A stretch of 45,266 nucleotides of DNA from a virus (taxonomy: Duplodnaviria > Heunggongvirae > Uroviricota > Caudoviricetes), in IMG/VR virus record IMGVR_UViG_2531839130_000013; one strand, written 5' to 3'. Positions 4,921 to 28,387 of the stretch are shown here, piece by piece; the stretch's first letter is position 1, and each line of letters begins with the position of its first letter. Under the pieces are notes generated by a model. It was not told where the DNA came from and made no database searches. It worked only from the letters and a program-made list of their open reading frames with translations. Position numbers and translations under genes: made by a program.

Positions 4921-5142
4921 ATGACTAGTAAAAATGTAAATATCCAGTTTAACCACGATGTTTCTCCTGCCGGACTTGCGGATGAACTCACTGCTATAAA
5001 AACAGCAATTATGCTACTTGTTGCTAAGTTGCCAGCAGCATCACAACCATCAGATATTTGTGACTCATTACGTAAGATGAATTCAACAAAATGCAACGAG
5101 ATGGCATCACTTATTGAAATAGCTATTGATTTTAATGATTAA
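4921..5142 (+). CDS. Hypothetical small protein (74 aa), opposite in orientation to the left operon
   Basis: ATG at 4921 inside a longer track ORF, weak SD (GGATGG); protein-like composition; 3' end overlaps the convergent minus-strand gene by 11 nt. Could be a shadow ORF. Confidence 0.25.
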   Translation: MTSKNVNIQFNHDVSPAGLADELTAIKTAIMLLVAKLPAASQPSDICDSLRKMNSTKCNEMASLIEIAIDFND

Positions 5143-5506: not shown

Positions 5507-5528
5507 TATTAGCCTCGTTGGTTAGCTA

Positions 5529-5747
5529 TTAACGTGGGTATGTAATCATTCTGGCAATGCTTAATGCCGCTGCTTTTTCCAGCCTGGTGATATCCTGCTC
5601 CAGAGCGGACAGATTTTCAGCCTGCTTAGCCCTGGCTTCATTGGCCCATTTCAGATCCTGCGCTGCATTAATTTTCTGGCGCATCCACTCATAAAGTTCA
5701 TCATCGGTATAGTCTTGTGCGATGATGACGGGTTCTCGTTTCTGCAT
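5529..5747 (-). CDS. Hypothetical protein (72 aa)
   Basis: ORF in the leftward operon, predicted coiled-coil-like composition. Confidence 0.45.
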   Translation of the reverse strand: MQKREPVIIAQDYTDDELYEWMRQKINAAQDLKWANEARAKQAENLSALEQDITRLEKAAALSIARMITYPR

Positions 5748-5775
5748 ACTGATTCCTCGCGGTGCTGTTTCGCTT

Positions 5776-5904
5776 ATCAGCCGTTAGATTTTGCGGAACT
5801 GGAAAGCGCCTGTTTAAATTCGTTGAAGCTGAGAGCTTCTTCGCCTTCGGCAAGACCTTCGAAGTATTCTTCGTAAGCCTTTTCCATGATTGTGTCGAAA
5901 TCCA
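5776..5904 (-). CDS. Hypothetical small acidic protein (42 aa)
   Basis: Hand-translated minus-strand ORF MDFDTIMEKAYEEYFEGLAEGEEALSFNEFKQALSSSAKSNG with SD-like GGTGAGTG upstream; fits the gap between neighbours. Below the size cut-off of the ORF track. Confidence 0.35.
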
Positions 5905-5906
5905 TA

Positions 5907-6143
5907 TCACTCACCTGAGTTTCTTTCCAGCCAGCGACGGGCACCATTTTCGGTTTTAAACGTTTTGCTTTTGGTATACGTCATCGCGGTGAACGTACCG
6001 TCCTGGTTGGGGAACACGCCACATACCAGAGATTCGCTGTTGCCAAGATCGATAGTATCCATGCTGACCTCATTTCCCCTTAACGCCGGGGTAGCGGAAC
6101 AAAAACCTGCTGCATAGTTATTAAAGTTGAACCCTGCCGTCAT
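5907..6143 (-). CDS. Hypothetical protein (78 aa), first gene of the leftward early operon
   Basis: ORF directly downstream of the candidate pL-type promoter; start may be at an internal Met. Confidence 0.45.
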   Translation of the reverse strand: MTAGFNFNNYAAGFCSATPALRGNEVSMDTIDLGNSESLVCGVFPNQDGTFTAMTYTKSKTFKTENGARRWLERNSGE

Positions 6144-6241
6144 GTTCTTACGCCTCGGGCTGGCTACTTAACCCCTGACCACTGCCTGGTAACTCGAAGT
6201 ATTGCCCTGCATTATGTGGGGCGGGGTGGGTTGATATTTTT

Positions 6242-6269
6242 AGTTTAATAAACATTAAACTTAAGTCAA
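6242..6269 (-). promoter_or_regulatory. Candidate leftward early promoter (pL-like): -35 TTGACT, 16-bp spacer, -10 TAAACT on the minus strand
   Basis: Minus-strand hexamers are identical to those of the candidate rightward promoter at 7257-7286; ACTAAAC-like operator motifs nearby (6254-6260, 6276-6282). Confidence 0.4.
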
Positions 6270-6353
6270 GTAAAAACTAAACCGCAGGGCGTAACAAACA
6301 CAACGCTTTTGATAAAGTCGTTGCGGTTGTTATGTTTCTATTGGTAGTGAAAG

Positions 6354-6632
6354 TTAGGGAAACTGGCGTCTTGCGTGGATCACGTTTACTACTTCAACGC
6401 TTGATGTTGTTACGCGGTATAGAATTATATAGTTAGGGTGGGCTACAATCTCACGCAAGCCAGGTACTCTGTCGCTTGGTGGGTATAAATACGGATGTTC
6501 GGATAACGGCAGCACACAACCCCTTAATCGCTGCCATAAGCGTTCAGCCGCATCTATGTCGAAACGAGCAATATAACTAGTTATATCATCTAGGTCGGTA
6601 TCTGCGCTTTCAAGCCATAACACGGGTAACAT
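6354..6632 (-). CDS. parE: ParE/RelE-family type II toxin (about 92 aa)
   Basis: C-terminal region REIVAHPNYIILYRV...VEVVNVIHARRQFP is typical of the ParE/RelE fold; start placed at internal Met (MLPVLWLE...) abutting the antitoxin stop. Sizes (92 aa toxin, 63 aa antitoxin, upstream repressor) match the three-component PaaR-PaaA-ParE prophage modules of E. coli O157 as I recall them. Confidence 0.75.
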   Translation of the reverse strand: MLPVLWLESADTDLDDITSYIARFDIDAAERLWQRLRGCVLPLSEHPYLYPPSDRVPGLREIVAHPNYIILYRVTTSSVEVVNVIHARRQFP

Positions 6633-6633
6633 T

Positions 6634-6825
6634 TTACTGCTTGCTCCGTTCCTTGCGCATTTTAGCAAAGCGTTCTGCCATTCTGCGCTCAACTTCGTCA
6701 TGGGGAATTGCTGGGCGTGGATCTGCAAGGCTCGTTGCTACTTTTGCACGCAGCCATTCGTTGTAACTGTTTTCTTGTTCAATGGTTTCAAATTCAGAAA
6801 CCATTGGTGAAAGGGCTCTATTCAT
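6634..6825 (-). CDS. Antitoxin partner of the ParE-like toxin (63 aa, PaaA-like)
   Basis: Start MNRALSPMVSEF... preceded by GGAGGA SD; small acidic/basic protein immediately upstream of the toxin with near-adjacent stop/start. Confidence 0.6.
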   Translation of the reverse strand: MNRALSPMVSEFETIEQENSYNEWLRAKVATSLADPRPAIPHDEVERRMAERFAKMRKERSKQ

Positions 6826-6845
6826 GTTTCCTCCGGTTTTATAAC

Positions 6846-7217
6846 TCAGGCGCGGCGGCATTTTTGCGCCGCAATCCATCTCGCTATGAGATCTTCCATT
6901 GATTCTTTTTTCTGCTTTAACTCGCTGATTATCTGGCGTTGCTCATCCTCAGGGAAGGCTGAAAAAATCTGCAATAATTCCAGTTGATTAGACGTTAACC
7001 CTGCATGTGGTGGAGAAACCTCCGGTTGTTCTGCGTATTCCGCATCCAGATACCCTTCCGGCATCCCGTATGTTTGCTCTATTCTTCTGGCAGCCTTTTC
7101 TCCAAACGAGGCTCTCCCACTCATTAGTTGAGATAGGTAGCTCTTCTCTTTGGGTGGCAGAGTTTTATCTTTAAACCACTCCTTGAGACGTAAACGGCGA
7201 ATTTCTTTTTTTTGCAT
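6846..7217 (-). CDS. Phage repressor-like HTH regulator (cI/DicA/PaaR-like), probably leaderless
   Basis: HTH-like segment KSYLSQLMSGRASFGEKAARRIEQTYGMPEGYLD; C-terminal LELLQIFSAFPEDEQ resembles the DicA C-terminus. Start set at MQKK (7217) because the longer 158-aa reading runs through the divergent promoter and the cro-like start; a GATAAT -10 sits 6 nt upstream of this ATG. Confidence 0.7.
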   Translation of the reverse strand: MQKKEIRRLRLKEWFKDKTLPPKEKSYLSQLMSGRASFGEKAARRIEQTYGMPEGYLDAEYAEQPEVSPPHAGLTSNQLELLQIFSAFPEDEQRQIISELKQKKESMEDLIARWIAAQKCRRA

Positions 7218-7223
7218 GTGGTA

Positions 7224-7305
7224 ATTATCTTTAGTAATCACTAAACAAGCAAATACTTGACTTAATGGTTTATTAAACACTAAACTCTCAAAAAAAACAC
7301 TAAAC
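7224..7305. promoter_or_regulatory. Divergent promoter/operator region: leftward pRM-like promoter, rightward pR-like promoter, three CACTAAAC repeats
   Basis: Leftward -10 GATAAT (7224-7229 on +) and -35 TTGCTT (7247-7252) with 17-bp spacer; rightward -35 TTGACT 7257-7262, 18-bp spacer, -10 TAAACT 7281-7286; direct repeats CACTAAAC at 7239-7246, 7278-7285, 7298-7305. Confidence 0.45.
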
Positions 7306-7315
7306 CGAGGAAGGT

Positions 7316-7618
7316 ATGACATTAAAAGAGTTTATTAAATCATTGAGGGTTGGTGATGCTAAGAAATTCGCAGCCAGACTTGGTGTATCGCCATCTTACT
7401 TATCGCAAATGGCGTCTGGACGAGCAGCTATATCTCCAACACGCGCCCTTATGATCGAATCTGCGACGGAAGGCCAAGTAAGTAGGGCGGAGCTACGACC
7501 CCATGATTGGGAGCTTATTTGGCCTGAGTATGCGAGCGGCATTCGTTTGGGGCAAACACATGTAGTTCATGCTGAAGGTGATTGTAGTGCATGCTTATCT
7601 GATGGAGTTGATTCATGA
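7316..7618 (+). CDS. Cro-like HTH protein (YdaS-like)
   Basis: 100-aa ORF divergent from the repressor, GAGGAAGG SD; HTH-like FAARLGVSPSYLSQMASGRAAISPTRAL; position equivalent to cro. Confidence 0.65.
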   Translation: MTLKEFIKSLRVGDAKKFAARLGVSPSYLSQMASGRAAISPTRALMIESATEGQVSRAELRPHDWELIWPEYASGIRLGQTHVVHAEGDCSACLSDGVDS

Positions 7619-8040
7619 AAATCAAGCATGAACACATCCGCATGGCGATGAATGCCTGGGCGCATCCGGACGGTGAAAAAGTTCCGGCTGCGAAAATTAC
7701 CAAAGCGTATTTCGAGCTGGGAATGACGTTCCCGGAACTGTATAACGACAGCCATCCGGAAGCCCTGGCTCGCAATACTCAGAAAATTTTCCGCTGGGTG
7801 GAGAAAGACACCCCTGATGCGGTTAAAAAAATTCAGGCGTTGTTACCAGCTATCGAAAAAGCAATGCCGCCTCTGCTGGTGGCCCGAATGCGCAGCCACA
7901 GTTCAGCCTGGTTTCGGGAGCTGGTGGAGACGCGGGAACGGCTGGTGAGAGACGCTGATGATTTTGTCGCAGTGGCGATCGCTGGTTTCAACCAGATGAA
8001 TCGTGGTGGCCCTGCAGGAAATATTGTGGCTGTGCATTGA
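7615..8040 (+). CDS. YdaT-like protein (cII-position regulator / putative toxin family)
   Basis: 141-aa ORF starting MKIKHEHI..., overlapping the stop of the Cro-like gene; synteny and N-terminus resemble Rac prophage YdaT as I recall it. Confidence 0.5.
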   Translation: MKIKHEHIRMAMNAWAHPDGEKVPAAKITKAYFELGMTFPELYNDSHPEALARNTQKIFRWVEKDTPDAVKKIQALLPAIEKAMPPLLVARMRSHSSAWFRELVETRERLVRDADDFVAVAIAGFNQMNRGGPAGNIVAVH

Positions 8041-8105
8041 CTCGCAATATTCATACCGGATCACTTCCGGCAATTTGTGAGTAAAAAGATTCGGTATCAA
8101 AAGAG

Positions 8106-9152
8106 GTGAGTATGGCTAACGCCTGGCTCAGATTATGGCATGACATGCCAAACGATCCTAAGTGGCGAACAATTTCCAGGTTGTCAGGACAGCCAATCGC
8201 AACAGTGATGGCTGTGTATATCCACCTTCTGGTGAGTGCGTCACGAAATGTCACGACATGTCACGGTGTGTCACTACGTGGTCACATTGATGTCACGGCG
8301 GAAGATTTAGCAAGTGCGCTTGATGTGACGGAAGAAGTAATTGATTCAATTTTACAGGCAATGCAGGGGCGGGTACTTGATGGAGATTTGATCAGTGGAT
8401 GGGAAAAACGCCAGGTACTGAAAGAGGACAATGGCAACGTTTCACAAACCGCGAAATCCCCGGCAGAGCGCAAGAGAGCGCAGCGCGAGAGGGAAAAATT
8501 ACGAAAACAGAATGAGGGGGCGCGCGACGAGTCACGCATCTGTCACGACATGTCACGACGAGTCACGACAGATAAAGATACAGATAAAGAATTAAACCCC
8601 ACACATAACGCGCGCGTGCGAGAGAGTGCTCCTGCCAGTGAGGCAAATGGCGTGCCGTTGCAAACAGCGGAACCTGATTACCTGGAAGGCCTGAGCGAAC
8701 CCATCGGGAAATTTCCGATGACCGATGGCTGGCATCCGTCGCCGGATTTTCGACGACGGGCTGCGCTGTGGGGCGTGGCTCTTCCTGAGCCGGAATTTAC
8801 ACCAGCTGAACTTTCCGCCTTCCGGGACTACTGGGCAGCGGAGGGCAAAGTGTTCACGCAGGTTCAGTGGGAGCAGAAATTCGCCCGTCACGTAAATCAC
8901 GTCAGGGCGCAGGCTAAACCAGTCAGCAAGGGGGTAAACCATGCAGCAGCACCAGGTGGCACCGCATCACGGGCAGTTCAGGAAATTCGGGCAGCACGTG
9001 AGCAGTGGGAACGTGAAAACGGATTTATCAGCGACGGAAACGGCCTGGAAGCTGTGGGAACTCATGGGGGAGGTTTATTCGAACCGCTGGACCCAGAAGA
9101 ACGGGGCCGCACCTTCGAAGCTCTGGATTGCACAGATTGGCGCGATGACTGA
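8106..9152 (+). CDS. Replication initiation protein (O-like; YdaU/DUF1376-type N-terminus)
   Basis: 348-aa ORF with N-terminal WLRLWHDMPNDPKWRTI motif; two clusters of TGTCACG iterons lie inside the coding sequence, as the lambda ori lies inside O; immediately followed by a P-like gene. Confidence 0.65.
   Translation: MSMANAWLRLWHDMPNDPKWRTISRLSGQPIATVMAVYIHLLVSASRNVTTCHGVSLRGHIDVTAEDLASALDVTEEVIDSILQAMQGRVLDGDLISGWEKRQVLKEDNGNVSQTAKSPAERKRAQREREKLRKQNEGARDESRICHDMSRRVTTDKDTDKELNPTHNARVRESAPASEANGVPLQTAEPDYLEGLSEPIGKFPMTDGWHPSPDFRRRAALWGVALPEPEFTPAELSAFRDYWAAEGKVFTQVQWEQKFARHVNHVRAQAKPVSKGVNHAAAPGGTASRAVQEIRAAREQWERENGFISDGNGLEAVGTHGGGLFEPLDPEERGRTFEALDCTDWRDD
8239..8298. repeat. Iteron cluster 1: about six copies of (T)GTCACG at roughly 10-bp spacing
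   Basis: gcgTCACGaaaTGTCACGacaTGTCACGgtgTGTCACtacgtgGTCACattgaTGTCACG read directly from the sequence. Confidence 0.6.
8527..8564. repeat. Iteron cluster 2: four copies of GTCACG(A) followed by an A/T-rich tract (8565-8595)
   Basis: GAGTCACGcatcTGTCACGacaTGTCACGacgaGTCACGacag then gataaagatacagataaagaattaaa; iterons plus AT-rich region are ori-like. Confidence 0.55.
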
Positions 9153-9606
9153 GCAGCAAATCCGACAGGTCTGCCGCCAGTGCATGGACCGCTGCCGGGC
9201 GGGTGAAACATGGCCTCCGGACCTGGCTGAGTTTGTGGCACTGATTTCGGAGAGTGGGGCAAATCCATTTGGTCTGACGGTGGATGCTGTGATGGAGGAG
9301 TACCGTCGCTGGCGCAATGAGTCCTGGCGATACGACGGAAGCGATAAATACCCATGGACTCAGCCTGTGCTGTATCACATTTGCCTCGAGATGCGTTCAA
9401 AGGGGATTGAGCGCCAGATGACCGAAGGGGAATTAAAACGGCTTGCAGAACGGCAGCTGACGAAATGGGCAAAGCATGTTAGTAACGGCCTGAGCGTTCC
9501 GCCAGTCCGGCGACAACTGGCGGCACCCAAACGCCCGTCGGGACCAACGCCAATTGAGTTACTGAAACAGGAATATGAACGCCGGAAAGCGGCTGGGTTT
9601 GTTTGA
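8941..9606 (+). CDS. Replication protein P-like helicase loader
   Basis: C-terminal two-thirds align by eye with lambda P ([14 protein letters not shown] / [27 protein letters not shown]...[11 protein letters not shown] / YPWKSNAHYWLVTNLY...AELRRKAADEL). 5' end overlaps the initiator gene; true start may be the Met at 9064. Confidence 0.6.
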
Positions 9607-9640
9607 GTTGAGAAGTAATTTTTACCGGGAGGAAATTTTA

Positions 9641-10402
9641 ATGGAGACCGTTTTTGACGCACTGAAAGCGATGGGAAAAGCTACGTCGGTAGAACTGGCT
9701 GAGCGACTTGATATCAGTCGTGAAGAAGTGCTGAACGAACTATGGGAACTGAAAAAGGCTGGTTTCGTTGATAAAAGCGCGTACACCTGGCGTGTGGCTG
9801 ATAACAACGTTCAGCAGGAACAGCCAGCGCCAGAAGAACAGCCGGAAGAAACCTCCACGGCGACAGTAGCGAAAATCTCAGAGTGCGATTTAACCGCGAC
9901 GATTGAACAACGCGGACCACAAACGGCTGATGAGCTGGCTACATTGTTTGGTACCACATCACGCAAAGTGGCTTCAACGCTGGCAATGGCAATCAGCAAA
10001 GGCCGTCTGATTCGTGCTAATCAGGACGGTAAATTTCGTTACTGTATGCCGGGCGATAATTTACCAGCAGAGCCGAAAGCAGCATCGGTAGCGGAAACTG
10101 ATGGTAAAGCCTTTCCTCAGCCTGCATGCGTTGCGTTACCAGTACAGGAAGCTGCAACACAGGAAGATATTAAAACAGAGACTGTGGCGGACATTGTGCA
10201 GTCGCTGCCATCGTTTACTGAAACGCGAGCGGATGACCTGGTTTTACCATCGCTGCATATGGCAAACCGCGAACTGCGTCGGGCGAAAAATCATGTCCAG
10301 AAGTGGGAGCGAGTCTGCGCCGCGCTGCGGGAGCTGAACAAGCACCGGGATATTGTACGACAGATTACTGATTCTTCCCGCCATGTTGCATCGGAAAAGT
10401 GA
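9641..10402 (+). CDS. Hypothetical protein with N-terminal winged-helix-like segment (253 aa)
   Basis: Start [12 protein letters not shown]... with GGGAGG SD; N-terminal [28 protein letters not shown] looks like a wHTH; acidic/Q-rich linker. Confidence 0.5.
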
Positions 10403-10834
10403 TTGCCGGAGGCACCTGTGGCAAAAGTATTTACACCAGAAGAGCGGGAAAAAATTAAAGGGCAGGTTATTGAACTCGTGCGCCAGAGTGGGCGCGAGAC
10501 GTTACGGCAACTGGAAGCTAAAACAGGGGCGACAAGATACCTGATGAGCGTTCTCGCCAGAGAGCTGGTTGCCAGTGGTGATGTATACAACTCTGGCTAC
10601 GGGTTATTCCCGTCTGAACAGGCTCGTAAGGACTGGATAAAGGCCCGCAAAAAGATGTCGAAAGCAGCAGTGAAAAAAAAGAGCGACCCGGACTTGGTTT
10701 ATTCATTACCAGACGGAGAAATACGTCGTTACAACAGACGACAGAACATAATCTGTCGCGAGTGCCGGAAGAGTGAGGTTATGCAGCGAGTGCTGGCGTT
10801 TTATCAGGGGAATTTTGAGGAGGAGGTACTGTGA
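10403..10834 (+). CDS. Hypothetical protein (143 aa)
   Basis: ORF abutting the previous stop; contains a CxxC pair near the C-terminus (CRECRKSE); no family recognised. Confidence 0.4.
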   Translation: MPEAPVAKVFTPEEREKIKGQVIELVRQSGRETLRQLEAKTGATRYLMSVLARELVASGDVYNSGYGLFPSEQARKDWIKARKKMSKAAVKKKSDPDLVYSLPDGEIRRYNRRQNIICRECRKSEVMQRVLAFYQGNFEEEVL

Positions 10835-10891
10835 GTGAAATTAGCTATCAGTCTTCAATTACCGCTGGCATTCGCATCAAAGGAGAGGAGC

Positions 10892-11251
10892 ATGGAAATA
10901 AAACCAGAAGATGAGTTAAGTAATATTGTTTTATTTCCGGTAAAAGAGGATGACCCACGTAATCAGGTTAATTTTCTTTATGAGCCATCGGAAAGACCAT
11001 GCTGCCATCACGCTTCTGTCCGGGTTGACGAAAAAGAGCGTCAGGTCCGCTGTAAAATCTGCGGTGCAGTTGTGGAGCCATTTGACTGGATGCTCTCTGT
11101 GGCGAAAAGAGAAACCAGACTGGCAGATGGTGTAAAACAATTGCGTCAGGAGGAACGGGAAAGACGGAAAAATATAGAAAAGTTAATTCAGATTGAGCGT
11201 AACGCGAAAGCGCGGATACGCAGGGCGAAAAAAACAGAACTGAATAATTAA
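10892..11251 (+). CDS. Hypothetical zinc-ribbon protein (119 aa)
   Basis: Start MEIKPEDE with strong AAAGGAGAGGAG SD; Cys/His cluster CCHH...C.IC suggests a zinc ribbon; basic C-terminal tail. Confidence 0.5.
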   Translation: MEIKPEDELSNIVLFPVKEDDPRNQVNFLYEPSERPCCHHASVRVDEKERQVRCKICGAVVEPFDWMLSVAKRETRLADGVKQLRQEERERRKNIEKLIQIERNAKARIRRAKKTELNN

Positions 11252-11395
11252 ATTTAGCACTGTAAATAATTTTAATCCTTAACCTGAGGGATTTCTGCAC
11301 CCTCAGAACATCAGTAGGCCGCCCGAAAGGGCGGGAAGCAGTCACACATTTGTTTCCGATAGTCCCGTTCTAATGCTAGACTATTTGATATTTTC

Positions 11396-12082
11396 ATGAC
11401 CACAATAAATACGTTTATGACAGTTGCTGATTTCAAACGGCCTAAATTGGAGCTCCCAAACGGGGCAAACAAACTACTACTGCACTCTTGCTGTGCTCCA
11501 TGTTCCGGTGAAGTGATGGAGGCGCTTCAGGCCTCGGGAATCGACTACACCATCTTTTTCTACAACCCGAACATTCATCCTCAGAAAGAGTATTTAATTC
11601 GTAAGGATGAGAATATTCGCTTTGCTGAACAACACGGCGTGCAGTTTATCGATGCTGATTACGACACAGACAACTGGTTTGAACGTGCCAAAGGAATGGA
11701 ATGGGAGCCCGAGAGGGGGATCCGTTGTACCATGTGTTTTGACATGCGTTTTGAGCGGACAGCGTTGTACGCTGCTGAAAATGGTTTCAGTGTGATCAGC
11801 AGTTCGCTGGGCATTTCACGCTGGAAAAATATGCAGCAGGTTAACGACTGTGGGCGGCGAGCCGTCGCGCATTATCCGGGAATGGTGTACTGGGATTATA
11901 ACTGGCGCAAGCAGGGCGGCTCGTCCCGTATGATTGAAATCAGCAAGCGCGAAAAATTCTATCAGCAGGAATATTGTGGCTGTGTGTATTCTCTGCGCGA
12001 TACCAATCTACACCGCAAATCTCAGGGACGCCCTCTTATCAAAATTGGTCAACTCCACTACGGTAAAGAAGAGAAGGAGTGA
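11396..12082 (+). CDS. queH: QueH-like protein (DUF208, epoxyqueuosine reductase family)
   Basis: N-terminal [11 protein letters not shown] motif plus downstream conserved Cys (CTMCFD, YCGCV) match the signature of QueH/DUF208 as I recall it; stand-alone gene between replication genes and the hok locus. Confidence 0.6.
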
Positions 12083-12262
12083 TTTTATGGATCACCTTTC
12101 TGATTGATTTCATATTGGCGAGGTAGCAGGAGTTAAGTAGAATTGCTGCGGGTGCTTGAGGCTATCTGTCTCAGGCATGAACACCAAAAGGCAGATAGAG
12201 AAAAGCCCCAGTTAACATTACGCGTCCTGCAAGACGCTTAACATTAATCTGAGGCCATATCT

Positions 12263-12322
12263 ATGCGACACATAGAGATTAGCCTCTTACGGACCGAAAG
12301 GTCAAGGAGAAGCGGGCTATGA
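12263..12322 (+). CDS. Short leader ORF (19 codons) whose stop overlaps the hok ATG (mok-like coupling ORF)
   Basis: atgcgacacatagag... ends in TGA overlapping the hok ATG (cTATGAag); the leader region is rich in inverted repeats typical of hok mRNAs. Confidence 0.3.
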   Translation: MRHIEISLLRTERSRRSGL

Positions 12323-12474
12323 AGCAGCGAAAGGCGATGTTAATCGCCCTGATCGTCATCTGTTTAACCGTCATAGTGACGGCACTGGTAACGAGGAAAG
12401 ACCTCTGCGAGGTACGAATCCGAACCGGCCAGACGGAGGTCGCTGTCTTCACAGCTTACGAACCTGAGGAGTAA
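12319..12474 (+). CDS. hok: Hok/Gef-family type I toxin (51 aa), HokD/RelF-like
   Basis: Hand-translated: MKQRKAMLIALIVICLTVIVTALVTRKDLCEVRIRTGQTEVAVFTAYEPEE, essentially the Hok/RelF sequence; AAGGAGAAG SD upstream; below the size threshold of the ORF track. Confidence 0.85.
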   Translation: MKQRKAMLIALIVICLTVIVTALVTRKDLCEVRIRTGQTEVAVFTAYEPEE

Positions 12475-12544
12475 GAGACCTGGCGGGGGAGAAATCCCTC
12501 GCCACCTCTGATGTGTCAGGCATCCTCAATGCACCCGCACTTAA

Positions 12545-12569
12545 CCCGCTTCGGCGGGTTTTGTTTTTT
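12545..12569 (+). terminator. Intrinsic terminator downstream of hok
   Basis: cccgc-ttcg-gcggg stem-loop followed by an 11-nt T-rich run. Confidence 0.6.
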
Positions 12570-12641
12570 CTGAGCATCCTGGTTTACAATCCACATGCCA
12601 GCCTGAACAACTGGCACCTGCTGCGCCAGCAGAGAAAACAG

Positions 12642-12914
12642 ATGGCGCACAAGACCAAATTACACAATTCTGATACCGTTCGTGCCAGCAGGCACGGGCG
12701 GTGTTCGCACGCATTCAAATATGACTGGTATCAGCACGACCCCTGCACTGAAGAACAGGCCGAATGGCTGATTCATAACTACCGCAGACGTGGGTATGAG
12801 TTTAGGAAAGCCCTCAGCCTCGATTATCGTCACTGGATAATCTACGTCAGACTCCCTTATTCCGAACGCCCACCGCGTCCGTCCCGCACATTCCAGCAAC
12901 GCATCTGGAGGTAA
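12642..12914 (+). CDS. Hypothetical protein (90 aa), in the position of Qin rem
   Basis: Start set at MAHKTKLHN because the longer reading runs through the hok terminator; Cys/His-containing small protein; named by synteny only. Confidence 0.4.
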   Translation: MAHKTKLHNSDTVRASRHGRCSHAFKYDWYQHDPCTEEQAEWLIHNYRRRGYEFRKALSLDYRHWIIYVRLPYSERPPRPSRTFQQRIWR

Positions 12915-12915
12915 C

Positions 12916-13965
12916 GTGCGGGTATTACTTCGACCTGTTCTGGTGCCGGAACTTGGGGTGGTTATCGTTAAGCCAGGTCGTGAATCCATGCAGGTATTCC
13001 ATAACGGCAGAGTGCTGGTTGAACCGGAGCCAAAAAGCATGCGCGGTCTGCCGTCCGGGGTCGTTCCTGCCGTTCGCCAGCCGCTGGCGGAAGACAAATC
13101 TCTGCTGCCATTTTTCAGCGATGAGCGGGTGATTCGTGCTGCCGGCGGCGCTGGTGCACTGTCTGACTGGCTCCTGCGTCATGTTAAATCCTGCCAGTGG
13201 CCTCATGGTGACTACCATCACAGTGAAACCGTCATACATCGTTACGGTACCGGCGCGATGGTGCTGTGCTGGCACTGCGACAACCAGCTGCGTGACCAGA
13301 CATCCGAATCACTCGGGCAACTTGCTCATCAAAACCTGTCAGCATGGATGATTGACGTCATACGCCATGCAGTGAATGGCACGCAGGAGCGGGAATTATC
13401 GCTGGCTGAATTATCCTGGTGGGCGGTCCGCAATCAGGTGGCGGACGCGCTTCCGGAGGCAGTATTACGTCGTTCTCTGGGGTTACGTGCGGAAAAAATC
13501 CGCTCTGTGTACCGTGAAAGCGACATCATACCGGGAGAGCAGACAGCCACCAGCATACTGAAGCAGCGCACAAAAAATATTGTGCTACCGCCTCACGCCC
13601 ACCAGCAACAGAACCCACCACAGGAAAAGACGGTGGTCAGCATTGCCGTTGATCCGGAGTCTCCTGAATCTTTCATGAAGCGACCTAAACGTCGCCGCTG
13701 GGTTAACGAAAAGTACACGCGCTGGGTTAAGACACAGCCGTGTGCATGTTGTGGTAAGCCAGCCGACGATCCCCATCACCTGATTGGTCACGGTCAGGGA
13801 GGGATGGGGACAAAAGCCCACGATATTTTCACGCTACCGCTGTGCCGGGAGCATCACAATGAACTTCATGCTGATCCGCTGGCATTTGAAGAAAAGCATG
13901 GTTCCCAGATTGATTTAATTTTTCGTTTTCTTGATCACGCCTTTGCAACCGGCGTGCTCGGGTAA
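12916..13965 (+). CDS. DUF968-family protein with C-terminal HNH-like Cys/His motif (YdfU-like)
   Basis: GTG start with GGAGG SD; C-terminus CACCGKPADDPHHLIGHGQGGMGTKAHDIFTLPLCREHHNELH is HNH-like; 349 aa like Qin YdfU. Confidence 0.55.
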   Translation: MRVLLRPVLVPELGVVIVKPGRESMQVFHNGRVLVEPEPKSMRGLPSGVVPAVRQPLAEDKSLLPFFSDERVIRAAGGAGALSDWLLRHVKSCQWPHGDYHHSETVIHRYGTGAMVLCWHCDNQLRDQTSESLGQLAHQNLSAWMIDVIRHAVNGTQERELSLAELSWWAVRNQVADALPEAVLRRSLGLRAEKIRSVYRESDIIPGEQTATSILKQRTKNIVLPPHAHQQQNPPQEKTVVSIAVDPESPESFMKRPKRRRWVNEKYTRWVKTQPCACCGKPADDPHHLIGHGQGGMGTKAHDIFTLPLCREHHNELHADPLAFEEKHGSQIDLIFRFLDHAFATGVLG

Positions 13966-13977
13966 AAGAGGTTACTG

Positions 13978-14349
13978 ATGCGTATAGAGTTTGTTTTGCC
14001 TTACCCGCCAACGGTGAACACCTACTGGCGACGTCGTGGCAGTACATATTTTGTATCAAAAGCCGGTGAGCGTTATCGCCGTGATGTGGCGCTCATTGTT
14101 CGCCAGCAGCGACTGAAATTAAATCTGTCCGGAAGGCTGGCGATCAGGATTATTGTGGAGCCACCGGATAAGCGCCGTCGTGACCTGGACAATATCCTGA
14201 AAGCGCCACTGGATGCACTGACACATGCGGGACTGCTTATCGACGACGAGCAGTTTGATGAAATTAATATTGTGCGCAGTCAGCTTGTACCTGGTGGTCG
14301 GCTGGGCGTGAAGATTTACGAAATTACAGGTGGTAACGATGGCACGTGA
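13978..14349 (+). CDS. rusA: Holliday junction resolvase RusA
   Basis: Translation aligns with E. coli RusA including DRRRRDLDN...DALT catalytic region; typical nin-region position upstream of Q. Confidence 0.8.
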
Positions 14350-14704
14350 TATTCAGATGGTTCTTGAGCGTTGGGGAGCGTGGGTGGCAAATAATCATGA
14401 GGATGTCACATGGCCATCGATTGCTGCTGGCTTTAAAGGATTAATACCGTCGAAAGTTAAATCGCGTCCGCAATGTTCCGACGATGACGCAATGATCATT
14501 TGTGGCTGTATGGCCCGGTTGAATAAGAACAACAAAGAATTACACGATTTGCTGGTAGATTATTACGTGGCGGGCATGACGTTTATGGCGCTAGCACGAA
14601 AGCATGGTCGTTCGGATTGCTGGGTTGGCCGTTTGTTGCAAAAGGCTGAAGGGATAGTTGACGGCATGTTGATGATGCTTGATATCAAGCTGGACATGGA
14701 CTGA
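14330..14704 (+). CDS. Late-gene antiterminator Q-like protein (about 120 aa, QuuD-type)
   Basis: Position immediately after rusA and before the lysis-side cargo; size matches short Q-family antiterminators; Cys-containing IICGCMARL segment. Start probably MARDIQ at 14339. Confidence 0.5.
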
Positions 14705-14720
14705 TAAAACTTAACTCACA

Positions 14721-14744
14721 TACCCTCTCCATGCGGAGAGGGTA
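14721..14744. terminator. Bidirectional hairpin between Q and the convergent lipoprotein gene
   Basis: Perfect 10-bp inverted repeat taccctctcc-atgc-ggagagggta between two convergent stop codons. Confidence 0.5.
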
Positions 14745-14748
14745 TGAA

Positions 14749-15228
14749 TTAAATGTTTTTATAATAACTCGCTTTTTCGTTAAAATTATTTTTGTTTTCT
14801 CTGGATGGAGAACTTACGTAGTTTTCCCATGCGCTATACGTTTTGATTAATGCTTCTCGCTCTGTAGGTGATTTTGTGTTTGCCTTGAGTTTTTCAAATG
14901 GTTCTTTTGCTGCATTTAAAACGATCATCATTTGCTCGATGTCGCAGTCAGCGATTGCTTTTGATATATCGGGATCCCAGCCAACTCTCACTAACATATC
15001 TTGCTTGCTGGAAGTAATAAATTGTGTAGTGTTGATTATCATTTCTCCCTTATATAGAAGCTTTAAAAAATTATTTTTGTTAACTTGCTGGGGCGTGTTG
15101 TCCAAGGTGATATTTTCGCATTTCTTTAAATACGCATAATGATCACTATTTCTGTTTTCTGCGGAAGATTGAGCCGTACACCCTGTAATGATCAATGTAC
15201 TTAATAATGTCAATGCTATTTTTTTCAT
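14749..15228 (-). CDS. Lipoprotein of unknown function (159 aa), AT-rich accessory gene
   Basis: N-terminal signal peptide with lipobox LIITGC; markedly lower GC than flanking phage genes; opposite strand to the late operon. Confidence 0.6.
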   Translation of the reverse strand: MKKIALTLLSTLIITGCTAQSSAENRNSDHYAYLKKCENITLDNTPQQVNKNNFLKLLYKGEMIINTTQFITSSKQDMLVRVGWDPDISKAIADCDIEQMMIVLNAAKEPFEKLKANTKSPTEREALIKTYSAWENYVSSPSRENKNNFNEKASYYKNI

Positions 15229-15304
15229 ATGGGCCTGCTTGTGAATTATCGTACAAGAAAAGTTCGACTAAATTTTATCGTAAAAAGACATCGCCGAACA
15301 GATG

Positions 15305-15332
15305 TTTACAATCGTAAAAAATCAAATATGCT
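15305..15332 (+). promoter_or_regulatory. Candidate sigma-70 promoter (TTTACA, 16-bp spacer, TATGCT), possible late pR'-type promoter
   Basis: Hexamers read from sequence, positioned about 35 nt upstream of an intrinsic terminator and upstream of the plus-strand cargo and lysis genes. Confidence 0.3.
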
Positions 15333-15366
15333 GTTAAGAGTGGTTACTTCGCCACACAGCTTAAAC

Positions 15367-15386
15367 CCGCCGCCAGGCGGTTTTTT
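15367..15386 (+). terminator. Intrinsic terminator (candidate tR'-like)
   Basis: ccgcc-gcca-ggcgg hairpin followed by TTTTTT. Confidence 0.45.
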
Positions 15387-15509
15387 GTGTCCGAAAAACG
15401 GCGCAGTACGTTAAACGTGCTGGTGGTTGCGAATACCGGTCTTTCAGCTTGCTGGCTTTTTCGACAAGAGTTATTGGTATGTCACGTTAACCAGAAAAGG
15501 GAAAAAGAC

Positions 15510-15707
15510 ATGCTAAAACAGCAGGATATGACCGAAACTGCCAGAGTGGTGTTTAATGAATTAAGCGTCACCGAACCGGCGACCGTCGGGGAGATTGCGC
15601 AGAATACTTACCTTTCACGCGAACGCTGCCAGTTAATACTGACCCAGCTTGTTATGGCGGGTCTGGCAGATTATCAGTTCGGTTGTTACAGACGCCTTCC
15701 GCGGTGA
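15510..15707 (+). CDS. Small hypothetical protein (65 aa), possible winged-helix regulator
   Basis: Start MLKQQDMTETAR with SD upstream; located just upstream of the methyltransferase gene. Confidence 0.4.
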   Translation: MLKQQDMTETARVVFNELSVTEPATVGEIAQNTYLSRERCQLILTQLVMAGLADYQFGCYRRLPR

Positions 15708-15857
15708 AGGTTTTTTAATTTGTGGTAATGGGCGGCTGGTGGGTGTTAGCGGCACCTGCCAGCCATCTGCTCATGCGTTGTGGTCACAAGCAAACCTCAG
15801 GCCCATCTGCTTTGCGCAAAAGCGGTATGAGCCTATCAGAGAAGTGCTTATTGATCT

Positions 15858-23739: not shown

Positions 23740-25307
23740 ACGGGGAACTGGTGGATATTCATGGGCAGCCTTTACGGCAAAGCATGGGATATTCTGGTGG
23801 TGGTTCCGGGTTCGGTGGGCAAATGGCAGAATGGCTGCCTGCACCGGAAAGTGCCGACGTGGCGCTCTTACCTTCCATTCATCTGGGTAACGCCCGCGCG
23901 GATGATCTGGTCCGTAACAACGGTATTGCATCGAATGCAGTGGAAATTCATAAGGATCATATTGTCGGGCACATGTTTCGTCTGAGTTACCGTCCCAACT
24001 GGCGCTGGCTGGGGATGTCGGAAGCAGATTCACATGCTTTTATTGAAGATGTTGAGGCGGCGTGGATGGAATACTGCGATCCGGTGTTTGGTATGATGGA
24101 TGTGGAAGGGCGTCGTTCGTTTACCGAATTCATTCGTGAAGGGGTGGGGGTCCATACGTTTAACGGTGAAATTTTTGTCCAGCCCGTATGGGATGCGGAA
24201 TCCACGTCATTATTCCGGACGAAATTCAAAACCATCAGCCCGAAGCGTGTCAGTACACCCGGTTATGGTACCAGCGATCGTTTTATGCGTGCCGGGGTGG
24301 AAATAAACCGACACGGAAAAGCGCTGGCCTACCATGTTCAGGATGATGACTGGCCCGGCTACGGTGTCAGTAAATGGACACGAATTACGGCAACACTGCC
24401 TTCCGGACGACCGGGAATGATCCATGTGTTTCAGCCACAGGAAGACGGGCAGACCCGCGGGGCCAACCAGTTTTATTCTGTAATGGAGCGTCTCAAGATG
24501 CTCGACACACTGCAGGCCACGCAACTGCAGTCGGCGGTGGTTCGCGCCATGTATGCCGCCACGATTGAATCCACACTGGATTCGGAAAAAGCGTTTGAAT
24601 ATATCGCCGGGGTGGGAGATGGAGGTAAAAATCCCCTGAACACCATCATGAAAGGCTACGCGCGTTATTACGCCACCAATACGGTAAAACTGGGCGGGGT
24701 CCGTATTCCGCATCTTTACCCGGGAGATTCACTGAATCTGCAGACAGCCCAGAATGCGGATAATGGTTTTTCTGAACTGGAAAAGGCGCTGTTACGTTAC
24801 ATTGCTGCCGGACTGGGTGTGTCGTATGAGCAGCTTTCCCGTGATTATTCACAGGTCAGTTATTCCAGTGCCAGGGCATCCGCCAATGAGTCGTGGCGGT
24901 ATTTTATGGGAAAACGAAAATTTGTGGCCAGTCGCCTGGCGTCACAGATGTTTGCCTGCTGGATGGAGGAAGCCCTTATTCGTGGTGTGATCCGTCCGCC
25001 GAAATCCCGTTTCTCATTCTGGGAGGCCCGTTCCGGGTGGTGCCGTGCCGAGTGGATTGGTGCCGGTCGTATGGCGATTGATGGCCTTAAGGAAGTGCAG
25101 GAAGCGGTGATGCGCATTGAAGGCGGCCTGAGTACATACGAGAAAGAGCTGGCCCTGATGGGGGATGACTATCAGGAGATTTTCCGCCAGCAGCTACGGG
25201 AAACTCAGGAGCGACAGGCTGCCGGTCTTCCGCGTCCGGTCTGGATAAAGGACGCGTTTCAACAGCAGATCCGACAGACAACGGGAGAAAAAGGCGATGC
25301 GCTGTAA
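23736..25307 (+). CDS. B: Portal protein (lambda B-like)
   Basis: 523 aa; position and size as lambda gpB. Confidence 0.85.
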   Translation: MNGELVDIHGQPLRQSMGYSGGGSGFGGQMAEWLPAPESADVALLPSIHLGNARADDLVRNNGIASNAVEIHKDHIVGHMFRLSYRPNWRWLGMSEADSHAFIEDVEAAWMEYCDPVFGMMDVEGRRSFTEFIREGVGVHTFNGEIFVQPVWDAESTSLFRTKFKTISPKRVSTPGYGTSDRFMRAGVEINRHGKALAYHVQDDDWPGYGVSKWTRITATLPSGRPGMIHVFQPQEDGQTRGANQFYSVMERLKMLDTLQATQLQSAVVRAMYAATIESTLDSEKAFEYIAGVGDGGKNPLNTIMKGYARYYATNTVKLGGVRIPHLYPGDSLNLQTAQNADNGFSELEKALLRYIAAGLGVSYEQLSRDYSQVSYSSARASANESWRYFMGKRKFVASRLASQMFACWMEEALIRGVIRPPKSRFSFWEARSGWCRAEWIGAGRMAIDGLKEVQEAVMRIEGGLSTYEKELALMGDDYQEIFRQQLRETQERQAAGLPRPVWIKDAFQQQIRQTTGEKGDAL

Positions 25308-26913
25308 TTTATCACATATTGCCGCGATGGCATTTAATGAGCCGCTTTTACTGGAACCCGCCTATGCGCGGGTTTTCTTTTGCGCACTGGGTAAGGAGAT
25401 GGGGGCGGGCAGCCTTGCCGTTCCGCAGCAGGCCGTTCAGCTTGATGCCGATGGTATGCAGCTGGAGGTTACCGATTATATGACTGGTGGTCCGCGTCCG
25501 GTAAAGAGTTACCAGGTGAAAAATGGTATTGCCATTCTGCCGGTGAGCGGCACGCTGGTACATAAAATGGGTACCCTGCAGCCATATTCCGGTATGACCA
25601 GTTATGACGGTCTGACTGCCCGTCTTAAGTCAGCGGTGAACGACCCGGATGTACGCGGCATTTTACTGGATATCGACAGTCCGGGCGGTCAGGCTGCCGG
25701 GGCGTTTGACTGTGCTGACATGATTTACCGTCTGCGGGAACAGAAGCCCGTGTGGGCGCTGTGTAATGACATGGCCTGTTCAGCCGCCATGTTGCTGGCG
25801 GCGGCCTGTACGCGTCGGCTGGTCACGCAGACGGCAAAAATTGGTTCGATTGGTGTGATGATGGCGCACACCAGTTACGAGAAACAACTGGCACAGGAAG
25901 GCGTGGATATCACGCTGATTTACTCCGGGCAGCACAAGGTTGACGGCAACAGTATTCAGGCGTTGCCGACAGGTGTGCGTGCGGATTTTCAGCGCCGTAT
26001 TGATGATGCCCGCCGGATGTTTGTCGACAAGGTGGCACTTTATACGGGGCTGAGTTCAGAGGTGGTGATGAATACCGAGGCTGCCGTTTATGACGGTCAG
26101 GCAGGCATTGATACAGGCCTGGCTGATCAACTGATTAATGCTGCAGATGCCGTTGATGTAATGGTTTCTGCTCTGAACGACTCTGTTACACAGGAGAATA
26201 CGATGACACCAAAAAATCTCACCGTTGCTGAAGCGGTGTCCCAGGAAAATCAGCGCGTGATGGGGATCCTGAATTGTCAGGAGGCGAAAGGACGCGAAAA
26301 ACTGGCGCAGATGCTGGCAGGTCAGCAGGGAATGTCAGTTGAGCAGGCAAAAACATTACTGGCAGCGGCACCGGCAACCGGCACGGCAAGTTCCGGCGAT
26401 CAAATTATTGCGTTGCCGGAAGCAAAAGGACGTGAACAACTGGCACGGACGCTGGCTGAACAGCCGGGAATGACGGTGGAGCAGGCGAAAACGTTACTGG
26501 CAGCGGCACCGGCAACCGGCACGGCAAGTTCCGGCGATCAAATTATTGCGTTGCCGGAAGCAAAAGGACGTGAACAACTGGCACGGACGCTGGCTGAACA
26601 GCCGGGAATGACGGTGGAGCAGGCGAAAACGTTACTGGCAGCGGCACCGGCAACCGGCACGGCAAGTTCCGGCGATCAAATTATTGCGTTGCCGGAAGCA
26701 AAAGGACGCGAAAAACTGGCACAGGCGCTGGCTGAACAACCGGGAATGACAGTGGAGCAGGCGAAAACGCTGCTGGCAGCTGCGCCATCAGTATCGCAAC
26801 CGTCACAGGTAACACTTTTTGAGCGCTTCATGGCACAGCATGCCGCCAGTGCCGTTTCCGGTGGCGGAACTGCCGGGAACGGGGAAAAAGAACTGCTGAT
26901 GAGTATGCCGTAA
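25297..26913 (+). CDS. C: Head maturation protease / scaffold (lambda C/Nu3-like, S49 ClpP-type) with an internal tandem-repeat linker
   Basis: N-terminal S49-type protease region (ILPVSGTLVHK..., DSPGG); C-terminal part carries four in-frame 46-aa repeats. Confidence 0.8.
   Translation: MRCNLSHIAAMAFNEPLLLEPAYARVFFCALGKEMGAGSLAVPQQAVQLDADGMQLEVTDYMTGGPRPVKSYQVKNGIAILPVSGTLVHKMGTLQPYSGMTSYDGLTARLKSAVNDPDVRGILLDIDSPGGQAAGAFDCADMIYRLREQKPVWALCNDMACSAAMLLAAACTRRLVTQTAKIGSIGVMMAHTSYEKQLAQEGVDITLIYSGQHKVDGNSIQALPTGVRADFQRRIDDARRMFVDKVALYTGLSSEVVMNTEAAVYDGQAGIDTGLADQLINAADAVDVMVSALNDSVTQENTMTPKNLTVAEAVSQENQRVMGILNCQEAKGREKLAQMLAGQQGMSVEQAKTLLAAAPATGTASSGDQIIALPEAKGREQLARTLAEQPGMTVEQAKTLLAAAPATGTASSGDQIIALPEAKGREQLARTLAEQPGMTVEQAKTLLAAAPATGTASSGDQIIALPEAKGREKLAQALAEQPGMTVEQAKTLLAAAPSVSQPSQVTLFERFMAQHAASAVSGGGTAGNGEKELLMSMP
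26281..26788 (+). repeat. In-frame tandem repeat, about 3.7 copies of a 138-bp unit, inside the C/Nu3-like gene
   Basis: Units start at 26281, 26419, 26557, 26695; copies 2 and 3 are identical, copies 1 and 4 diverge; encode EAKGRE(Q/K)LA..LAEQPGMTVEQAKTLLAAAPATGTASSGDQIIALP. Confidence 0.85.
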
Positions 26914-26953: not shown

Positions 26954-27289
26954 ATGATTAAAACCACCACAGAAAAGCGCGCGGACGGGCGCATTTTTGC
27001 CGGAAGCGATCCGGTATATACCGCAACAGGTACCAGTGGTATCAGTGTTGCCACGCCTTCACTGACGCCACTGATGCTGGATGACGCCAGCGGAAAACTG
27101 GTGGCATGGGATGGTCAGAAAGCCGGAACGGCTGTGGGGGTGCTGGTACTGGCGCTGGCCGGGACCGAGCCCACACTGACGTACTACAAAAGTGGTACGT
27201 TTGCCACCGAATCGCTGGTCTGGCCGGATTCGGTGGATGCGGTGAAAAAAGCCAACGCGTTTGTGGGAAGTGCCATCAGCCACGCCTGA
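26954..27289 (+). CDS. D: Head decoration protein (lambda D-like)
   Basis: PLMLDDASGKLVAWDG...YYKSGTF aligns with lambda gpD; SD CAGGAG upstream. Confidence 0.85.
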   Translation: MIKTTTEKRADGRIFAGSDPVYTATGTSGISVATPSLTPLMLDDASGKLVAWDGQKAGTAVGVLVLALAGTEPTLTYYKSGTFATESLVWPDSVDAVKKANAFVGSAISHA

Positions 27290-27358: not shown

Positions 27359-28387
27359 ATGGGGTTATTTACCACGCGTCAGTTGCTCGGCTACACCGAG
27401 CAGAAAGTGAAATTCCGTGCGCTGTTTCTGGAGCTGTTTTTTCGTCGTACGGTCACTTTCCATACTCAGGAAGTGATGCTGGATAAAATCACTGGAAAAA
27501 CACCGGTTGCGGCATATGTGTCTCCGGTTGTGTCAGGTAAGGTACTGCGCAGTCGTGGTGGTGAAACCCGCGTGTTACGCCCCGGCTATGTTAAACCAAA
27601 ACACCGGCTGGATTATCAGCAGGCGGTGGAGCGTCTTCCGGGGGAAGATCCGGCCCGTCTTAATGACCCGGCCTACCGTCGCCTGCGTATTCTGACTGAC
27701 AACCTGAAACAGGAAGAGCAGGCGATTGTGCAGGTGGAAGAAATGCAGGCGGTCAGCGCTGTTCTGCAGGGTAAGTACACCATGAGCGGTGAACAGTTTG
27801 AGACGGTGGAAGTGGATTTTGGACGTTCTGCCGCCAATAACATAACGCAGGCAGATGGACGCGAATGGTCAAAACAGAATGTTGACACCTTTGATCCGAC
27901 GCATGATCTGGATGCGTACTGCGATTTTGCTTCCGGTACCATCAATATTGCGATTATGGACGGTACTGTCTGGCGTATGCTGAACGGTTTTAAGCTGTTT
28001 CGTGAAAAACTGGATACCCGCCGTGGCTCAAAATCTGAACTGGAAACCGCGCTGAAAGATCTGGGTTCCGTGGTTTCTTTTAAAGGTTATTACGGTGATC
28101 TGGCCATCATGGTGGCGAAAACAACGTATGTTGATGAAAGCGGGGATGAGCAGCGCTATCTGCCGGAAGGCACACTGATTCTTGGAAACACTCAGGTGGA
28201 TGGTGTCCGTTGTTATGGCGCAATCCAGGATAACCAGGCGTTGAGTGAAGGGATCACCTCTGCAATTCGTTATCCGAAACACTGGTTAGAGGTGGGGGAC
28301 CCGGGGTGCGAATATACCATGACGCAATCTGCGCCGTTGATGGTGTTGCCGGATCCGGACGCGTTTGTGGTAGTTAAGGTGAAATAA
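27359..28387 (+). CDS. E: Major capsid protein (lambda E-like)
   Basis: Strong match to lambda gpE along its length (SPVVSGKVLRSRGG, AQVEEMQAVSAVL.GKYTM, KLDTRRGS.SELETA.KDLG, SAPLM.L.DPD). Confidence 0.9.
   Translation: MGLFTTRQLLGYTEQKVKFRALFLELFFRRTVTFHTQEVMLDKITGKTPVAAYVSPVVSGKVLRSRGGETRVLRPGYVKPKHRLDYQQAVERLPGEDPARLNDPAYRRLRILTDNLKQEEQAIVQVEEMQAVSAVLQGKYTMSGEQFETVEVDFGRSAANNITQADGREWSKQNVDTFDPTHDLDAYCDFASGTINIAIMDGTVWRMLNGFKLFREKLDTRRGSKSELETALKDLGSVVSFKGYYGDLAIMVAKTTYVDESGDEQRYLPEGTLILGNTQVDGVRCYGAIQDNQALSEGITSAIRYPKHWLEVGDPGCEYTMTQSAPLMVLPDPDAFVVVKVK

Follow-up and report, generated by a model that had tools for sequence, protein, structure and literature searches.

Tandem Nu3-type scaffold modules, probably ancestral and recently rewritten by recombination, in a lambda-type head protease/scaffold gene

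The protease/scaffold gene and its nested reading frame

The window analyzed here is the entire 45,266-nucleotide (nt) stretch of IMG/VR virus record IMGVR_UViG_2531839130_000013 (Uroviricota; Caudoviricetes), and its subject is a tandem array of four 138-nt units within the gpC-like head maturation protease/scaffold gene. This gene lies between the portal gene and the genes of the gpD-like and gpE-like head proteins, which is the position of C/Nu3 in lambda (Table 1). Its open reading frame (ORF) of 538 amino acids (aa) contains the Pfam domain Peptidase_S49 (PF01343; E=7.7e-33, 114 bits against a cut-off of 24.9), and aa 1-302 match the head maturation protease family phrog_53 (E=2e-140). 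In E. coli genomes the 538-aa gene is labelled 'S49 family peptidase'.

An AGGAG motif within the gene occupies the same aligned position as the annotated ribosome-binding site (RBS) of gene 6 of phage 21. In alignments, the ATG at 26203 that follows it coincides with the annotated gene 6 start and with the methionine of the lambda sequence 'RMTKETQ', which we take to be the start of Nu3. The 236-aa product of this nested ORF matches phrog_8399, 'head scaffolding protein' (E=9.9e-53), and phrog_8940, 'capsid assembly protein' (E=4.9e-44), in four separate stretches each. All four repeat units match phrog_8399, the best stretch covering profile positions 41-98 of 131, and the units match phrog_8940 and phrog_53 as well. 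At the C-terminus, the tails of phage 21 (…MFEHFMANHSPAAV…MLMAMP) and lambda (…LDRLMQGAPAPLAAG…LLNTPV) align with that of the window protein.

The entire array lies downstream of the internal start. Because it is contained in the nested ORF and each unit matches the Nu3 core, the repeat is the core of the scaffold and not a linker. The original prediction, made from the sequence of the window, had placed it between the protease domain and a C-terminal scaffold-like region, an assignment that is not borne out. For annotation, the gene is best described as a protease with a nested scaffold, and the repeat as the scaffold core.

The tandem array

Tandem Repeats Finder reported a single strong array at 26280-26780, with a period of 138, 3.6 copies, 93% matches, 0 indels and a score of 834, and a direct-repeat search returned 231-nt copies at exact spacings of 138 and 138 nt. 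One period equals 46 codons, and the repeat follows the reading frame of the 538-aa ORF. Set to this frame, the four units begin at 26272, 26410, 26548 and 26686, and units 2 (26410-26547) and 3 (26548-26685) are identical at all 138 of 138 nt. The longest exact run at an offset of 138 is 215 nt (26356-26570 repeated as 26494-26708), so that the 353 bp from 26356 to 26708 are perfectly periodic. Chance cannot account for this periodicity. At the protein level, the core EAKGRE-x-LA-x3-A-x3-GM(T/S)VEQAKTLLAAAP is present four times. The fourth copy shares only the core before the unique C-terminal tail begins, which explains the nucleotide count of 3.6. The repeat finder, the repeat search and the translation thus confirm the four head-to-tail 46-aa units that had been predicted in a C/Nu3-like gene, including the nucleotide identity of units 2 and 3, and the predicted extent of 26281-26788 is correct within a few bases.

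A phase-variable on/off repeat is ruled out, since the unit of 138 nt equals 46 codons and all alleles are in frame. Elsewhere in the window, a weaker tandem repeat was found at 2277-2360 (period 21, 4 copies, 77% matches, score 94), within the range of a large minus-strand ORF at 1419-3890.

Table 1. Features of the head gene region of the window, with the evidence for each
Feature	Coordinates	Strand	Basis
Lambda-family portal gene	23736-25307	+	Pfam Phage_portal_2, E=3e-95
gpC-like head maturation protease/scaffold gene, 538 aa	25297-26913	+	Pfam, phrog_53, phage 21 homology
S49 (ClpP-fold) peptidase domain, aa 146-290	25732-26166	+	PF01343
AGGAG ribosome-binding site of internal start	26192-26196	+	Read from sequence; 6 nt before ATG 26203
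Nested in-frame Nu3-like scaffolding protein ORF, 236 aa	26203-26913	+	Start alignment, phrog matches
Scaffold module 1, 45 aa (NQRVMGILNCQEAKGREKLAQMLAGQQGMSVEQAKTLLAAAPATG)	26248-26382	+	Alignment A3; AlphaFold2 pLDDT ~90
Scaffold module 2	26386-26520	+	Alignment A3; identical to module 3; mosaic
Scaffold module 3	26524-26658	+	Nucleotide-identical to module 2
Scaffold module 4, core conserved, then unique tail	26662-26796	+	Alignment A3
Perfectly 138-periodic tract (homogenized region)	26356-26708	+	353 bp, from 215-nt run at offset 138
Conserved C-terminal tail of C/Nu3 (…LFERFMAQHAASAVSGGG…ELLMSMP)	26797-26910	+	Aligns with phage 21 and lambda tails; low AlphaFold2 confidence
gpD-like head decoration gene	26954-27289	+	Pfam HDPD, E=6.4e-22
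gpE-like major capsid gene	27359-28387	+	Pfam Phage_cap_E, E=3.8e-64

Age of the array and selection

The age of the array was assessed from relatives that carry the same scaffold type. Over the gene, VG35A2 shares 97% identity with the window, TW10690 91% and E41 89%. In these three relatives, orthologous units differ at 18-24 of 138 nt and paralogous units within a genome at up to 59; units 2 and 3 of VG35A2 are an exception, being 15 nt apart. Across the 31-codon cores of paralogous units, the nonsynonymous divergence (dN) ranges from 0.03 to 0.12 and the synonymous divergence (dS) from 0.24 to 1.76. Based on these distances and on the comparison of dN with dS, the units are old paralogues, each under purifying selection.

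The copy number is also conserved in wider samples. From the 106 complete E. coli genomes with this scaffold type, 60 hits were taken at even intervals along the ranked list, with nucleotide identities down to about 82%. The full 854-bp span, equal to four units, was present in 49 of them; six were 9 bp shorter, four were covered in part and one had three units. The nonhomogenized arrays from IMG/VR contained four units in 38 of 40 cases and three units in the other two (L047 and L050). Overall, four units are kept in about 90% of the sampled relatives. An origin of the array by recent duplication, as originally proposed, is therefore not supported: four units are found down to about 82% identity, dS between units is 0.24-1.76, and phage 21 already possesses three. 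What stands of the proposed recency is the identity of units 2 and 3; it does not extend to the array as a whole or to a plural series of recent duplications.

Recent homogenization

The recent changes were located by a position-wise comparison with VG35A2, in which unit positions are counted from the E of EAKG. The two genes differ at 47 nt, 38 of them in the array and 37 of these in units 1-3. The first 75 nt of window unit 1 (26281-26355) are those of VG35A2 unit 1 and are followed by the linker common to window units 2 and 3. For 93 nt, these two units are the same as VG35A2 unit 2, after which comes a linker nearest to that of VG35A2 unit 3, and unit 4 differs from its VG35A2 counterpart by 1 nt. 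The window array is a mosaic that reads head-1 plus linker-c, head-2 plus linker-c, head-2 plus linker-c, and unit 4. Since the linker of unit 1 has also been converted, a single duplication is insufficient and several exchanges between units are needed. In addition, the L020 array, which belongs to another lineage, is partly homogenized, its second and third units having 4 mismatches in 138 nt, which indicates that the process recurs.

These observations bear on the possibility that the repeat arose by a simple recent duplication and forms a linker of variable length that separates the protease from a distinct C-terminal scaffold. In that case units 2 and 3 would be expected to be identical, and L029 has a three-unit allele of the same sequence that a single duplication would turn into the window allele. 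Nevertheless, the repeat makes up the scaffold core, the four-unit state is ancestral in the lineage, and the linker of unit 1 is also of the unit-2/3 type, which one duplication does not explain. This explanation thus appears quite improbable as a whole, and two of its parts, the linker and the recent origin of the array, are refuted by the identity of the repeat as scaffold core and by the ancestral four units.

Chi sites were considered as a local cause of recombination, and none is present in the head and tail genes of the window. The Chi sequence (GCTGGTGG) occurs 12 times in the window, compared to 2.15 expected from shuffles, with all sites at 164-18370 in the early, nonstructural part.

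Variation in copy number

Copy counts were taken from IMG/VR loci and complete E. coli genomes. A search for homologous proteins with the scaffold gave no protein larger than about 410 aa and many partial ones, and a scan of homologous contigs, in which lambda-like genes with one copy predominated and many appeared to come from lambda contamination, held little information on copy number.

A set of IMG/VR contigs carries scaffold ORFs that consist of the left part of the window's scaffold ORF, n units and its right part, with 0 mismatches. The number of inserted units is zero in L053 and L054 (two units in total), one in L029 (three units), two in L007-L010 (four units) and three in L011 (five units). 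The 2.5-kb flanks of these contigs have 0-3 mismatches to the window, except for the downstream flank of L054, which has 26. Variants in copy number make up 4 of 8 homogenized arrays and 2 of 40 diverged arrays (Fisher p=0.005). Such an excess is expected if recombination is much easier in a perfect 353-bp repeat than between units with 10-25% divergence, and it is equally expected if short-read assemblers miscount a repeat longer than the reads.

Copy-number change in this family is nonetheless real. Diverged arrays of three units are found in the complete genome of E. coli PapRG-04-4 and in the IMG/VR contigs L047 and L050, and because their units differ by 15-25%, they are not assembly collapses. 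Moreover, P0039 is a two-unit chimera in the phage 21 lineage. The expectation that copy number would vary between related prophages is therefore upheld, with two to five units in otherwise exact matches and three in diverged arrays.

It could still be argued that the number of units in the window and in the two- to five-unit series reflects the way in which assemblers handle the repeat. Reads shorter than about 353 nt cannot resolve the tract at 26356-26708, which exceeds typical Illumina reads, and what distinguishes the alleles is a number of exact whole units, with 0 mismatches, as mis-traversal of an assembly graph would give. Contig AQDT01000025.1 of GCA_000355595 (20,812 bp) is as long as the IMG/VR contig behind L008, several IMG/VR genome identifiers are nearly consecutive, suggesting one sequencing project, and the homogenized allele appears in no complete-genome record of the set. 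In addition, many proteins annotated as 'S49 family peptidase, partial' stop inside the repeat. However, the exact 538-aa protein with four units is present on 16 or more contigs, which derive from one metagenome and at least eight assemblies of several accession series, and the eight loci that were read all have 0-1 nt difference across the gene. Relatives sequenced with long reads, whose diverged units are not collapsible, also possess four, and no collapse is possible for the diverged three-unit arrays. There is no doubt that the repeat itself exists, since the module and the array are seen in over 100 complete genomes as well as in phage 21 and lambda. Based on this evidence, an artefact of assembly seems unlikely. 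The warning in the original prediction that the repeat is prone to collapse in short-read assemblies is supported by the partial proteins, although real variation and artefact are not fully separable in drafts. In practice, the 353-bp perfect tract is a spot where short-read assemblies break or miscount.

Several other records obtained in the searches deserve mention. In P0029 (323 aa; E. coli, 'putative phage capsid assembly protein'), frameshifted stretches occur in the array, and in-frame and out-of-frame units alternate, which suggests indel errors of sequencing or assembly in the repeat. L118, L120, L121 and about 20 further loci carry a lambda-type C/Nu3, all with 52% match to the query, on low-coverage contigs, some of which are 48.4-48.5 kb, the length of the lambda genome. 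Their assemblies belong to unrelated bacteria (Pseudomonas, Shewanella, Neobacillus, Enterococcus and Kitasatospora), and such loci most likely represent contamination with lambda control DNA. P0182 (844 aa) has an N-terminal part that we take to be lambda gpH, the tape measure protein, joined to a complete lambda gpC, and rather than a natural fusion it probably represents a deletion or vector construct of lambda or an error of assembly.

Structure and distribution of the module

AlphaFold2 modelling of the 236-aa scaffold gave a mean predicted local distance difference test score (pLDDT) of 79.9 and a predicted template modelling score (pTM) of 0.32. The modules reached a pLDDT of about 90, the linkers 68-79, and the tail was poorly defined. 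The high pLDDT of the modules together with the low pTM indicates well-formed modules with no fixed mutual arrangement. A single module, modelled from a 30-row alignment, had a pLDDT of 84.3 and helices at residues 3-8, 17-24 and 31-40. Each module of about 45 aa is thus predicted to be a small three-helix unit, and structure prediction, which had been suggested as a check, supports the earlier description of the segment as helical and alanine-rich.

Comparison of the scaffold and single-module models with solved structures returned no significant relative, and searching PDB sequences with the 236-aa scaffold yielded no more than a chance-level match (E=0.41); thus, no solved structure akin to the module was found here. 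The helix-turn-helix coat-binding domain of P22-type scaffolding proteins was considered as a structural analogue and rejected, as no similarity of fold was found. NCBIfam returned only sub-threshold matches, including EncD and GspK. The Pfam matches to families with helix-hairpin-helix or small helix-turn-helix DNA-binding motifs, namely T2SSK (28.5 bits), HTH_15 and Bac_DNA_binding, are sums of weak matches with no stretch passing alone, and they probably reflect only a shared helix-turn-helix periodicity.

When 1.84 billion representative proteins were searched with a profile built from alignment A3 of the 45-aa unit, 1,861 clusters matched at E<=0.001. In the best 150 of these, most proteins have one stretch, two or more are uncommon, and the maximum is four. 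When single, the stretch is located near the C-terminus of protease fusions of 400-530 aa or in stand-alone proteins of 100-200 aa. Independent duplications have also occurred: the S49 protease P0171 has a PPTPPTPP spacer between two modules, and two-module proteins are found in Bradyrhizobium. Some distant carriers retain the genomic neighborhood. The genes for P0120, whose protease belongs to the ClpP family and not to S49, and for P0116 are directly upstream of gpD-like and Phage_cap_E genes. The P0113 gene is directly upstream of a gpD-like gene, after which the next gene runs to the contig end without a Pfam record. The conserved neighborhood indicates that the module travels with the E-type capsid gene set.

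One of the Bradyrhizobium proteins is encoded at L149 1-12594 (Bradyrhizobium sp. RT6a, GCA_040548125.1) by a gene at 6001-6594. It is a stand-alone protein of 197 aa with two Nu3-type modules and no protease domain. The stretch of about 10 kb begins with a tyrosine integrase and contains small unknown genes, an unknown protein of 297 aa and a tape-measure-like protein of 783 aa, and no Pfam match to a portal, terminase or capsid protein is on record for it. L149 could be a phage satellite that carries only the scaffold, or a prophage remnant.

The breadth of this distribution also bears on the proposal that the repeat acts at the level of DNA or RNA, as an array of binding sites, a regulatory RNA or a recombination hotspot, with its coding capacity incidental. 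Perfect periodicity alone could hint at such a role. Conservation in diverged arrays, however, is at the level of the amino acids, with synonymous sites near saturation in many pairs (dN/dS of about 0.03-0.2), and the protein module is single per protein in most of the 1,861 representative clusters, as far as the best-matching ones were counted. Furthermore, no Chi sites lie in or near the array, and the ORFs on the opposite strand are just 51-56 aa long and mechanical in origin. A role of this kind is extremely unlikely.

Interpretation and proposed mechanism

Taken together, the evidence makes it likely that the array consists of four tandem core modules of the Nu3 type which are ancestral to this E. 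coli prophage lineage, under purifying selection and recently rewritten by recombination between units. The scaffold would then be a string of four modules of about 45 aa, connected by flexible Ala/Gly/Thr/Ser linkers and followed by the conserved C-terminal tail. In the sub-lineage of the window, homologous recombination between units would have rewritten the array, with unequal crossing-over, gene conversion, or deletion followed by re-duplication as candidate mechanisms. The resulting perfect 353-bp repeat may in turn be a good substrate for further unequal exchange or slippage, in keeping with the exact alleles of two, three, four and five units. Since gains and losses come in steps of 46 codons, they never disturb the reading frame.

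Lambda Nu3 is reported to bind itself, C and E, and to be required for the incorporation of the portal protein B (PMC3224144). By extension, the module would be the interaction unit of the scaffold and would serve in binding or self-association during assembly of E-type capsids. Its contacts may be with itself, with gpE or gpB, or with a combination of these. With several copies in tandem, the scaffold would become multivalent and longer, as would the protease with which it has its C-terminus in common, and a multivalent, extended scaffold would bring the protease into the prohead. The exposed linkers (AAAP-ATGTASSGDQ) are likely sites at which the protease cuts to remove the scaffold.

Several considerations weigh against this interpretation. 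The separate translation of the 3' third of the gpC-like gene from 26203 is proposed solely on the basis of homology with lambda C/Nu3 and phage 21 genes 5/6. Histories of gene conversion and of deletion followed by re-duplication cannot be told apart here. The contigs of the two- to five-unit series are drafts, and a perfect repeat of 353 bp is perhaps unresolvable in them, so that part of the series could be artefact; the long-read complete genomes of the E. coli set lack the homogenized allele, with a best identity of 97.1%.

A bolder extension is that the locus is hypermutable, such that recombination between perfect 138-bp units of the homogenized allele keeps producing scaffolds of two to five modules within one prophage population and thereby alters procapsid assembly, and that the two-module elements of Bradyrhizobium are satellites. 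This extension is speculative and rather doubtful. If true, shifts in valency or length would affect the efficiency or fidelity of assembly or the susceptibility to capsid-hijacking satellites or to defences that sense head assembly, and the Bradyrhizobium elements would use the module to redirect the E-type capsid of their helper.

Comparison with known systems

Concerted evolution is also known from in-frame tandem repeats of structural proteins in bacteria and phages, and as in the window, units are gained and lost and are homogenized by homologous recombination while the frame is kept. In contrast to surface proteins under selection by immunity or receptors, the window protein is an internal and transient assembly factor.

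In herpesvirus UL26/UL26.5 and in gpO of phage P2, a C-terminal region is common to protease and scaffold, and the protease thereby enters the procapsid along with the scaffold. The likeness of these systems to the window gene is functional, without a relationship in sequence or fold, and to our knowledge multiplication of a scaffold module in tandem has not been described for either.

Closer to the window is lambda itself. The Nu3 protein of lambda has 131 aa, compared to 236 aa for the nested product of the window. The lambda gpC/gpNu3 pair shares the S49 protease domain, the in-frame nested scaffold, one module (RIMGILNCEEAHGREEQARVLAETPGMTVKTARRILAAAP) and a related tail. Lambda differs in that a low-complexity stretch of about 55 aa precedes its single module, and the types with multiple copies do not have this stretch. 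By translation, the number of modules is one in C/Nu3 of lambda, three in gp5/gp6 of phage 21, four in the window and its E. coli relatives, and three in PapRG-04-4. Lambda with one module and phage 21 with three possess the same E-type capsid gene set, and their heads are of similar size. Nothing in the data points to a capsid size set by the number of modules, and the tuning of capsid assembly suggested in the original prediction is a conjecture. The overlap of C and Nu3 and the protease function of gpC are attributed to Shaw and Murialdo (1980) and Medina et al. (2010) in a passage of PMC8508860, where P2 and lambda are also cited together.

Phage 21 is the closest phage record, with 72.9% nucleotide identity over gene positions 17-1052, extending into the first repeat. 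The two share the gene order of portal, protease with nested scaffold, decoration protein (shp in phage 21) and major capsid protein, and also the internal start with its RBS. Within the scaffold ORF both possess the tandem in-frame motif (…ILxCQEAKGREQLAxxLAxxxGM(S/T)VEQAxxxLAAAP), followed by the same type of C-terminal tail (…F(E/D)xFMxxxSPxAV…LLMxMP). The phage 21 sequence reportedly originates from work by Smith and Feiss in 1993 (Gene 126:1). In its GenBank record (M81255), gene 5 is the analogue of C, and the nested gene 6, the analogue of Nu3, has its own RBS and carries repeat_regions named 'Tri1 box', 'Tri box' and 'Tri3 box' with the remark 'function unknown; putative'; a description of the 'Tri box' was not found in a search of the open-access literature. 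The phage 21 units are three, diverged, and spaced at 50 and 47 aa, whereas the window has four with an exact period of 46 aa, two of which are identical. The window repeat is thus of the same kind, as a copy-number variant, but the count differs from the three of 'Tri'.

In conclusion, the repeat is already on record in phage 21, and what is new here is one more copy and its recent homogenization. With one module in lambda, three in phage 21, four in the window and two to five in the near-identical prophages, these phages provide a natural series with which the function of the Nu3 module, and the number of copies that it takes, could be studied.

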